From Octopus sinensis (taxonomy: Eukaryota), in NCBI RefSeq assembly GCF_006345805.1, contig NC_043014.1, positions 9,424,001-9,488,000 on the forward strand: 64,000 bases of DNA, written 5' to 3'. The notes below the pieces were generated by a model, which was not told where the DNA came from, made no database searches, and was given only the letters and a program-made list of their open reading frames with translations. This document shows, piece after piece, positions 6,379 to 63,002 of this stretch (position 1 is the stretch's first letter; every line of letters starts with the position of its first letter). The translations under genes were made by a program, and so were the position numbers.

Positions 6379-6630
6379 GGAGGTGCGCGGGTTAGTGGTT
6401 AGGGTGTTGAACTCATGATCGTAAGGTTGTGGTTTCGATTCCTGGACCGGGCGATGCGTTGTGTTCCTGAGCAAAACACTTCATTTTCACGTTGCTCCAG
6501 TCCACTCAGCTGGCAAAAATGAGTAATCCTGCGACGGACTGGCGTCCCGTCCGGGTGGGGAATTTCTACGCCACTGAAACCGGGAAACCGGCCCTTATGA
6601 ACCTGGCATGGCTCGAGAAAGAACATTTAT
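6379..6630 (+). mobile_element. tRNA-derived SINE with CORE/V-like central domain and tail type 1
   Basis: A/B boxes; central CCTGAGCAAAACACTT...CCACTCAGCTGGCAAAAATGAGTA; tail shared with 46138-46439. Confidence 0.8.
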
Positions 6631-38613: not shown

Positions 38614-38703
38614 TTATTATATATATATATATAAATATGTATATATATTTATTAATATACATATATATAAATATGTATATATATTTATTAATATATATAT
38701 ATA

Positions 38704-39031
38704 TGGCTCAGTGGTTAGAGCGTCGAGCTTACGATCGTGAGGTTGTGAGCTCGAATCCCGGACCGGGCTGCGTGTTGTGTTCTCGAGCAAGGCACTTTAT
38801 TTCACGTTGCTCCAGTTCACTCAGCTGTAGAAATGAGTTGCGATGTCACTGGTGCCAAGCTGTATCGACCTTTGTCTTTCCCTTGGATAACACTGGTGGC
38901 GTGGAGAGGGGAGGCCGGTATGCATGGGCGACTGCTGGCCTTCCATAAACAACCTTGCCCGGACTTGTATCTAGTAAGGTAACTTTCTAGGTGCAATCCC
39001 ATGGTCATTCATGACCGAAGGGGGTCTTTAC

Positions 39032-39035
<4 letters not shown>
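38704..39035 (+). mobile_element. tRNA-derived SINE with CORE/V-like domain and a distinct tail
   Basis: TGGCTCAGTGG A box, GAGCTCGAATCCC B box; central domain as 6379-6630; head also at 62785-62880 (-). Confidence 0.85.
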
Positions 39036-39106
<71 letters not shown>

Positions 39107-39277
39107 CTAGATTATTTTATGCGCAACTCCATTGTCTCCCGAGACAAAAAGGATGCCAACAATATATATATACGCCAGATAAGCACATACATGAGAAACA
39201 AGGTGGAGAAAAGTGCTGCTCGAATACTGAAAATAGAGTAATATGGTTTATTAAAAGGAGCATAAAATCACCAAAAA

Positions 39278-39354
39278 TGTTAATCAAAGTTTCACATTCC
39301 CGTTCTTCGGAGAGATTTGCTTCGAAAGAAAACTGTCCAACGAACGGGAACGTG
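39278..39354. ncRNA. Inverted pair of HHR-like motifs (CCGANGA family)
   Basis: Minus: CTCT-CCGAAGA-ACGGGAATGT-GAAAC TTTGA TTA-ACA; plus: CTGT-CCAACGA-ACGGGAACGT-GA (truncated). Confidence 0.5.
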
Positions 39355-39502
39355 ATAGTCTTTGTGATTCTTTGGGTGTTTTTAATGAGACATTTAGAAA
39401 TTTAATATTTCTGATTACGGTGATCAGTGAATGGATTTCACTGTAAATATATATGTTTGTGAAGGCTGGCCGGCTGGCTCCTCAATCAGCAGATCTCACT
39501 AT

Positions 39503-39547
39503 CCTGGACTGATGACGGTAAGACCCAGAAACATGCATGTCCTCAGG
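39503..39547 (+). ncRNA. Type-I hammerhead ribozyme motif with intact core
   Basis: CCTGGA-CTGATGA-CGGT AAG ACC CA-GAAAC ATGCAT GTC-CTCAGG; palindromic helix III ACATGCATGT; closing pairs of helices I and II mismatched. Confidence 0.7.
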
Positions 39548-40789
39548 TGTGAATCTTGGCTGGTGGGGGTGCTTACCTCCCCTTCACAAACATAAGGACA
39601 CAGGGGGAAAATGTGCCAAAGCCGACAGGAAGCGTTCGATGCTTCCTAGGGCTAGACAGCGGTGGTGTGATTCCCATACGGGACTCGCGTTGGGTTGACG
39701 GTATACAACCACTCTCGCTCTCTCTATATATATGTATATATATGTGTGTCAAAGAAGAAAATGGAGGAGATGATCCCTCAACAAACATCAGCCTGCACGC
39801 CCTTCATCTGGATCAATTTATTAATTACAATCATATGTATGAGTAAATAAATAAACAAGTAAATAAAAAACACATAAATGAATATGAATGAAGTAGTGAA
39901 TAATATTATATTCTTACAGCCGTTTCTACTTTGGGGTTTCCAACTTGCCAACGTTTACACATCATACCAGTATTTTATAGAGATTTCACAAAGGTTGAGC
40001 AAAAATTGGTCAGGGGTTGGACAATAATTGAGCCCCAAAGCTTCTTCAGAGAATCCATAATGATAAGAATCAAACTTACGAGGAAGAAACATAAAATAAT
40101 AAAATAATAAAAATATTAAGGGAATGGTAAAAAATTTTCAGAGGTTATGAGATTCCATCTTATGGCCCAAAAGTCACTTCCCGAAGCAATCGCCATTGAT
40201 TGATTATCTTCAGTTTCTCCTTTGGTTTATAAATCCTGAATAAATTTCTTGTTTACTCTCACTCGTACATATTATTCAGTTGCGCTACTGCCCTATAACT
40301 GTAAGGATTTGGATATAGATACATAGATATACATCCAGTGGTATATCGGATATGTATTATACCTTAGATGGAAAGCGGGGAGAGTTGGAACCCCTGCTGT
40401 ATCATTTCCAGCTGGCCACATCTTCGTAGTCTCCGATTCATCTTGCCGAGTTATAGCTTACAGCGTTTACAACGTTCATCGGACTTTGAGCATCAGACGT
40501 GATGTTTGAATTTTAATACCCGGGGCGAATGACTGTGATGCAAGTAAATCTTTTCCAATATTCAGGTGGCTAAATATCAGCTAACTTTTTTCTCAACCAC
40601 AATATTAATCTCAATGTTCTGCAACGTCGTTGACTCTTCCCCAATGCATAAAGTTGTTCCCGAAAAAAGGAGACATTGAAATCGTCAAATTTATCATGAA
40701 CACGCTGTATATGTATGTTTTGGAGGGCGCGCGTGTATGGCTTATTTACCTGCAGTTTTTACGGTTAAAACTCGCATCACAATTATATT

Positions 40790-62274: not shown

Positions 62275-62876
62275 CTAACCCGATCCTTGTAAAAGTTTGA
62301 GCGACTCTGCACAAGTAGGAAGAACAAACAGCTGAAAAAGTATATATATATATATATATATATTTATACGGAAATATGCACGTAAATACACATCCACTCA
62401 AATATAGGTGTAGAGACATGCATACATATACATCCATTTTCGTATGTGCATGAGTATAAACACACACGCTTACTTACACATATGCATAGACGCACATATA
62501 CGAATACATATACAGGCAAACAATACAGACATCCGTATAAAAACATAACTTTTTTTAAAAATTGCTGAGTGTATAATAATAAAAATCGGATAAAAGACAT
62601 GCAAAATAGAACACCATATCTCGACTTATCTACAAATATAAGGATTAAGTGGGTTTCTAAAATACAATAAAATGAAATAAAAATAAAGATAAACTCTTAG
62701 ACATGAAAATAATATATACATATAACAATCGAAGGTTTTCTTGAGAAATATGTCGAAATATATACAATATTTTTCGATGCGAAATAAAGTGTCTTACTCA
62801 AGAATACAACACGCAGCTCGATCCGGGAATCGAACTCACAACCTCACGATCATAACCTCGACGCTCTAACCACTGA

Positions 62877-63002
<126 letters not shown>

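Follow-up and report, generated by a model that had tools for sequence, protein, structure and literature searches.

At positions 39386-39715 of a 64,000-nt stretch of the Octopus sinensis genome (NCBI RefSeq assembly GCF_006345805.1, contig NC_043014.1, positions 9,424,001 to 9,488,000 of the forward strand; here called the window) lies a short repeat with a predicted hammerhead ribozyme. Most probably, this feature is a decayed, 5′-truncated copy of a non-autonomous type I hammerhead insertion of about 355 nt, likely copied by the reverse transcriptase (RT)-endonuclease of a Penelope-like element (PLE), whose relatives serve as a target of L1/Tx1-type long interspersed nuclear elements (LINEs). 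An initial annotation of the window had proposed a retrozyme lacking long terminal repeats (non-LTR), and the repeat is indeed of this kind, being multi-copy, non-coding, of retrozyme size and equipped with a type I hammerhead. The motifs had been placed correctly (CTGATGA at 39509-39515, GAAACATGCATGTC at 39528-39541, 14-bp arms at 39452-39465 and 39581-39594, a hairpin at 39627-39647), whereas the limits given for the element, 39452-39710, need to be moved, since it starts about 66 nt further 5′, at 39386, and ends near 39715. The parts of the window copy are as follows.

39386-39715, plus strand: 5′-truncated retrozyme copy of family A, subfamily A1 (about 330 of 355-360 nt; 92% identical to a natural full unit)
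39386-39415, plus strand: portion of the 'tail', a 60-nt segment that finishes on the second fixed 3′ end of family A
39452-39465, plus strand: 5′ side of the rod's outer arm (both sides changed in 3 of its 14 pairs; 95.8% of cells paired)
39473-39494, plus strand: approximate position of LINE insertion in other copies, empty in this one
39503-39508, plus strand: 5′ strand of stem I (A39508 stands opposite C39542; siblings have G-C or A-U)
39509-39541, plus strand: type I hammerhead core (CUGAUGA, shortened stem II, GAAA, 2-bp palindromic stem III, GUC)
39542-39547, plus strand: 3′ strand of stem I (changes on both sides in 3 of 6 pairs)
39581-39594, plus strand: 3′ side of the outer arm, common to diverged families of the superfamily
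39627-39647, plus strand: hairpin within the conserved 3′ half, from folding
39693-39713, plus strand: terminal AC-rich hairpin with the first fixed 3′ end (1020 exact family matches), the putative start of reverse transcription

The window copy spans unit positions 30-360, and the tail piece stands upstream of the rest because the unit is circularly permuted. The description of the element as a GC-rich rod holds in part: GC content is 48% over the whole copy (39386-39715) and 54% in the part first reported, compared to 35% for the window, and folding gives a rod for the 5′ 143 nt, but the unit as a whole is branched. As annotated, the copy contains no transfer RNA (tRNA) and no open reading frame (ORF) above 96 aa, and translation gave no ORF starting at an AUG within the hammerhead core. 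No target duplication was seen around it. The unit has a canonical type I hammerhead, yet the Rfam models fail to detect it: at the gathering score there was no match in the window, and no hammerhead in seven sibling loci either.

By established hammerhead numbering, cleavage of the window copy is predicted 3′ of position 39541. Its ribozyme is likely weak or impaired because position 39508 is an A (G in 16 of 17 siblings), which breaks the first stem I pair, and because 2 nt of stem II have been lost relative to the siblings; both lesions are mostly absent in the closest siblings. The mismatches next to the core had been taken as a sign of impairment, which fits A39508 and the stem II loss but not the C.A at the foot of stem II, since this is a family-wide feature (unpaired in 27 of 34 copies). 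As it falls short of one unit and its single ribozyme is weakened, the window copy is predicted to be inert, and taken alone it is likely an ordinary, dead insertion.

A search of the 2.7-Gb genome, the check that the initial annotation had called for, showed many relatives rather than a single copy, with 42 other near-full-length places at 86-92% identity (40 scored of 2634 candidates). Exact matches to the hammerhead core with this stem III were found at least 274 times genome-wide, to the 3′ arm 1024 times and to the terminal hairpin 1020 times, and none of the three occurred in the reversed control. Copies longer than one unit have the unit's own 3′ end upstream, with a period of 353-360 nt, which closes the unit; at 351-360 nt, 43-47% GC and no long ORF, it lies within the ranges for retrozymes (150-450 nt, below 50% GC). 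Family A comprises the subfamilies A1-A3, the A1 copies differing by 3.4% from the column majority and A1 and A3 being 68% identical in the rod, while the diverged families B (351 nt), C, D and E have related scaffolds, or the same organisation with different ribozymes. Tandem multimers had also been named as something to look for, but the family is dispersed, a pair of exact stem III motifs at one-unit spacing being found at three places only (all family A dimers), and the window copy, at slightly less than one unit, is not the monomer that had been suggested. Multi-unit loci are present in families D and E. Family sequence was also found in contigs of five sequencing runs (RNA by guess only; three organism labels), the depth profile of which resembles that of a much larger run read as DNA, and such contigs cannot show ends or circles. 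No RNA record was listed as containing the family.

The family thus resembles the metazoan non-LTR retrozymes (Cervera and de la Pena 2020, PMC7229834; the 350-390-nt mussel elements and axolotl Rtz353), as described in the accessible text of that paper, in its unit size, GC content below 50% and absence of ORF and LTR, in its type I hammerhead with a 6-bp stem I and a short palindromic stem III, in duplications of more than 4 bp and in the presence of PLEs in the same genome; the mismatch at the foot of stem II is common to family A and HHR_Amex2. It differs from them in that nearly all copies are dispersed and shorter than two units, and its cleavage and circular RNA are predictions. In summary, this is a dispersed non-LTR retrozyme variant with a LINE hyperparasite, and the family is new.

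Among the other families, copies of family B (L162, L200, L228 and others) are mostly 95-100% identical to one unit, so that B looks the youngest of the families and is the most suitable for testing expression and cleavage, and family E (L282, L260-L267) has a tandem hammerhead unit of about 455 nt with a longer stem III.

We then considered whether the structure of the unit is maintained. The window stretch alone folds only modestly better than shuffled sequences (z of -1.9, with 9 of 200 shuffles equally good), and whole natural sibling units folded as circles gave z of -6.5 to -8 (four units, 60 shuffles each). Across 34 natural copies, 92.6% of the cells were paired and 16 of 46 pairs were changed on both sides, a score reached by 0 of 500 shuffles, and slid controls were 35-48% paired. 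The first stem I pair was G-C in 18 copies, A-U in 14 and mismatched in two, one of which is the window copy. Because compensatory changes keep the pairing across subfamilies, the alignment indicates that the rod and ribozyme helices of the unit are under selection. The same changes dispose of the proposal that the 14-bp arm is an inversion at an insertion junction, as the arm is a conserved part of the unit. The core of family D, like that of the genome's main PLE, has U3-A8, which is described as a compensatory variant of C3-G8 (PMC4209133, in the text available).

The label 'viroid-like' in the initial annotation is unsupported, the element being a genomic retroelement. Its size, strong self-pairing and hammerhead would suit an endogenised viroid-like replicon, but we regard this origin as extremely improbable, given the many old genomic subfamilies with marks of retrotransposition, the hundreds of genomic copies and a ribozyme on one strand only of the unit in the copies inspected. 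A viroid in the strict sense, an autonomously replicating RNA with no DNA form, was rejected in view of the hundreds of genomic copies with insertion marks.

How the unit enters the genome was examined in 70 loci picked by the arm motif, of which eight were dropped as same-place or duplicated (one known earlier via its LINE), leaving 63 segments. Fifty-eight of these end at one of two fixed internal sites, the windows for which together make up less than a tenth of the unit, whereas the 5′ ends are scattered, with only 2 of 63 near the cleavage site. The two ends are about 60 nt apart in family A, thereby defining its tail, and the tail of family B is 43-52 nt. A (TA)n tract follows 37 of the 58 fixed-site ends, 9 of 13 two-armed loci (all samples) pair one end of each kind, and duplications of 10-15 bp, above the 4 bp expected for retrozymes, flank 16 of 21 hand-picked insertions. 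A tail, an inverted arm and a bias for (TA)n or microsatellites are reported as PLE marks (PMC8557442), and in vitro a PLE protein used two internal RT start sites, giving a 'tail', and primed on both strands (PMC11167929), as far as the accessible text of these papers goes. The family shows all of these marks: two fixed 3′ ends with a tail, inverted arms, and AT-rich or (TA)n targets. Since the retrozyme ends match the two RT start sites of a PLE, the anatomy of the insertions points to PLE mobilisation. Two-site ends and two-armed insertions thus point to a mobiliser here, unlike in the metazoan retrozymes, whose repeats show no motif identifying one according to a 2020 review (PMC7761336, in its accessible text).

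The genome contains intact RT-GIY-YIG PLEs with hammerheads of their own. In 16 copies of the intact PLE, the short end was found nine times and the tailed end four times, and by inspection the PLEs have a Neptune-like cysteine linker (clade name after the available text of PMC8557442). PLEs such as Poseidon of Anolis (PMC11167929, accessible text) and the Neptune type share with the unit the two internal 3′ ends and tail, the inverted arms, the AT-rich or (TA)n targets and a hammerhead upstream of the ends; they differ in that the unit has no ORF, its tail is about 60 nt (A) or 43-52 nt (B) instead of 30-40 nt, and the PLEs sampled have no sequence in common with it. A young PLE family in this genome (L091-L098) encodes a 781-aa RT-GIY-YIG protein; it has another ORF upstream, its 3′ regions are of several kinds, and a U3-A8 hammerhead precedes the end by about 70 nt.

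The shared insertion marks could also mean that the unit is itself a solitary pseudo-LTR (pLTR) of some autonomous PLE, the ORF-bearing copies of which lie outside the sample. In Xenopus, a kinship between retrozymes and pLTRs is described in the text available of a preprint (bioRxiv 10.64898/2026.07.22.740005), and the sampling of PLEs in the genome was partial. What lies upstream of the unit, however, is its own 3′ end, and the tail continues into the next unit and never into an ORF; the few shared 3′ flanks at fixed junctions (nine pairs) are probably common short repeats; and at the loci examined, PLE coding sequence in sense was absent next to the unit. As to the pLTR of a known autonomous PLE raised at the outset, the unit is not the pLTR of an adjoining PLE ORF, since no RT-GIY-YIG ORF adjoins the units examined, and the solitary pLTR is improbable.

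L1/Tx1-type LINEs insert specifically into the related copies of the superfamily. At two of 30 ribozyme loci, the repeat is interrupted by a 1.6-kb element with duplications that encodes only ORF1, a name based on the 26-35% identity of its protein to ORF1 of full-length elements; Pfam gave no match for this protein. When the ORF1-only element was picked by its 3′ DNA, 18 of 28 junctions lay 19-30 nt before the hammerhead core, and when it was picked by protein, which is blind to the target, 23 of 27 lay 23-38 nt before it, the other four being copies stacked at the same site. The LINE site in the window copy was placed from these junctions (19-38 nt before the core, measured from the AATAAAGA end of the LINE). 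A related autonomous LINE family, taken as control, gave 0 of 14 such junctions (chance 0.07, or 0.027 inside the distance band), and the inserting LINE exceeds the 20% of flanks that marks target specificity in the accessible text of PMC4494074. Duplications of retrozyme sequence, mostly 14-20 bp, surround the LINE in 21 of 25 cases, and since they derive from different retrozyme families, the insertions are independent. Occupancy is a few percent (2 of 30 loci and 2 of 70). The LINE is absent from all 30 of the copies that best match the window copy, and elsewhere it is present in an A1-type copy (L135).

Full-length LINEs insert at the sites that the ORF1-only forms use, both entering several diverged retrozyme families. 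An intact L1/Tx1-type LINE with a 17-bp duplication (L275, G000:C1:12342000-12349500) lies in a multi-unit family D retrozyme with the U3-A8 core, and it encodes a CCHC ORF1 and an APE-RT-zf-RVT ORF2, the domain set of the Tx1 clade; a degenerate full-length LINE lies in family A3 (L280), and family E has seven copies of its own LINE subfamily at one site about 70 nt before the core. In a quick tree of 27 ORF2 fragments, one clade united the eight retrozyme-inserted rows with a U1 small nuclear RNA (snRNA) copy and two copies with other flanks (SH-aLRT, the Shimodaira-Hasegawa-like approximate likelihood ratio test, 100). The nearest solved structure to the ORF2 is L1 ORF2p and a homologue search of ORF2 returned no informative names; the placement of these LINEs in the Tx1 clade is provisional. 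Target-specific Tx1-clade LINEs (Tx1L in Tx1D, Keno in U2 snRNA, Kibi/Koshi, Tx1-Mar; PMC4494074, in its accessible text) share with these elements the CCHC ORF1, the APE-RT-zf-RVT ORF2, the use of one set position within a multicopy sequence, the stacking of copies there and a close relative in an snRNA gene. Unlike them, the LINEs described here use a hammerhead retroelement as target, in families with little shared sequence at the site, and have abundant ORF1-only forms.

As to side observations on these LINEs, the close relative lies at the 5′ end of a U1 snRNA gene (L259, 2228-2391; one copy only), and head-to-tail stacks of ORF1-only elements with 1.7-kb spacing were found at G000:C5:62292249-62298091, C7:80333647-80337790 and C3:74089320-74093441, several of the stacked elements having open frames of more than 440 codons.

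LINE 3′ ends adjoin the repeat at many loci, as would be expected if the repeat were a SINE-like (short interspersed nuclear element) passenger of adjoining L1/Tx1 LINEs, the LINE being its mobiliser and not its parasite. This reading is largely refuted and very improbable: retrozyme duplications flank the LINE in those 21 of 25 cases, and therefore the LINE entered the repeat; moreover, the repeat's own ends have neither AATAAAGA nor poly(A), and most copies are without a LINE. Some LINE-retrozyme composites were later recopied as passengers.

For the PLE-mobilised retrozyme favoured here, the following cycle can be proposed. Rare multi-unit source copies would be transcribed and would then self-cleave, probably in dimers given the short palindromic stem III. 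The cleaved monomer may then be ligated into a circle, a step that we consider slightly more likely than not. The PLE protein would nick AT-rich or (TA)n DNA on both strands, as the insertion anatomy suggests, and reverse transcription would begin within the RNA, at two positions separated by about 60 nt, which may give 5′-truncated, partial-tandem or two-armed copies with 10-15-bp duplications. The LINE endonuclease would likely read the conserved core region.

The nature of the template is where the evidence divides. Thirty-four of the 63 segments run across an uncut hammerhead and, as noted, only two start near the cleavage site, which would fit copying by template jumps or solely from linear multi-unit transcripts that stay uncut, with no circle and with the ribozyme serving another step or being a passenger. 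Unprocessed RNA was also the main PLE substrate in vitro in the accessible account of PMC11167929. In one two-armed insertion (L286, 736-1652), both arms begin inside a LINE 3′ end, one arm is 1.8 units long and the LINE is present at only one passage; since a monomer circle cannot give a LINE at one passage only, this locus is best read as copied from an uncut, longer-than-monomer RNA, which suggests that a retrozyme-LINE composite RNA may itself have been copied. A ligated circle, however, equally predicts copies that cross the cleavage site and exceed one unit, as 14 of 63 segments do; the compensatory changes in helices and core imply selection on cleavage, and mussel retrozymes of 350-390 nt make circles (PMC7229834, accessible text). 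Copying without any circle is somewhat unlikely. In family A, repeated pieces were closer within a locus than between loci for 38 of 39 pairs in inverted order and for 18 of 25 pairs in tandem; two of the 25 tandem pairs are segmental duplications, and such similarity does not separate circle from multimer.

Several observations weigh against a PLE-copied retrozyme with a selected ribozyme. No PLE sharing the unit sequence was found among the 30 GIY-YIG loci fetched (of 147 matches and 5029 candidates), nor among 11 extended loci, and because of this the PLE partner is deduced from anatomy; in vitro, a PLE inserted without need for ribozyme cleavage, according to the text available of PMC11167929. 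None of the 63 segments reaches two units and exact tandem dimers number three, where tandem retrozymes would have two or more ribozymes. The compensatory changes come from three subfamilies, and hence from few independent events, and related sequences can outscore a shuffle control without structure. In family A, it is mostly the C.A that closes stem II, and in four copies the predicted minimum-energy fold is 2-6 kcal/mol more stable than the hammerhead fold.

Two other repeats were seen in the window. Directly upstream of the window copy, 39162-39384 holds an older two-armed remnant of a different hammerhead-bearing repeat, with about 78% identity to the L060 and L170 copies, whose cores are intact. 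A short interspersed repeat whose head looks tRNA-like on inspection occurs at 38701-39036 and near 62781-62883 and 6394-6524, and is 81-89% identical to copies in other loci.

As a tentative and rather unlikely joint scenario, PLEs would move retrozymes while a U1-using Tx1-type LINE lineage moved over to the ribozyme region, a landing site that is both safe and transcribed; the hammerhead downstream would cut the read-through RNA of the LINE to a defined, target-matching 3′ tail, and escape from the LINE would drive fast turnover of the rod sequence under a conserved structure.

PLEs have been proposed before as movers of animal retrozymes, from co-occurrence and pLTR likeness (PMC7229834; PMC7761336), and a 2026 preprint ties the two by distribution and pLTR likeness (bioRxiv 10.64898/2026.07.22.740005), in the accessible text of these sources. 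We found no published report of the family in this host (including the available text of PMC13282606 and PMC10886601; Repbase and paper supplements may list families) and none of LINEs in retrozymes, Repbase and most subscription papers lying outside the search. The Tx1 targets listed in the accessible text of PMC4494074 are snRNA, rRNA, microsatellites and other transposons, with no ribozyme repeats. What moves animal retrozymes is an open question, and the insertions described here carry the two-start-site signature that has been shown biochemically for a PLE. Hence, a test of trans-mobilisation becomes concrete, with a defined RNA, defined start sites and intact PLE ORFs in the same genome. 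In addition, LINEs that insert next to a hammerhead at a set position extend the classes of target listed for the Tx1 elements.
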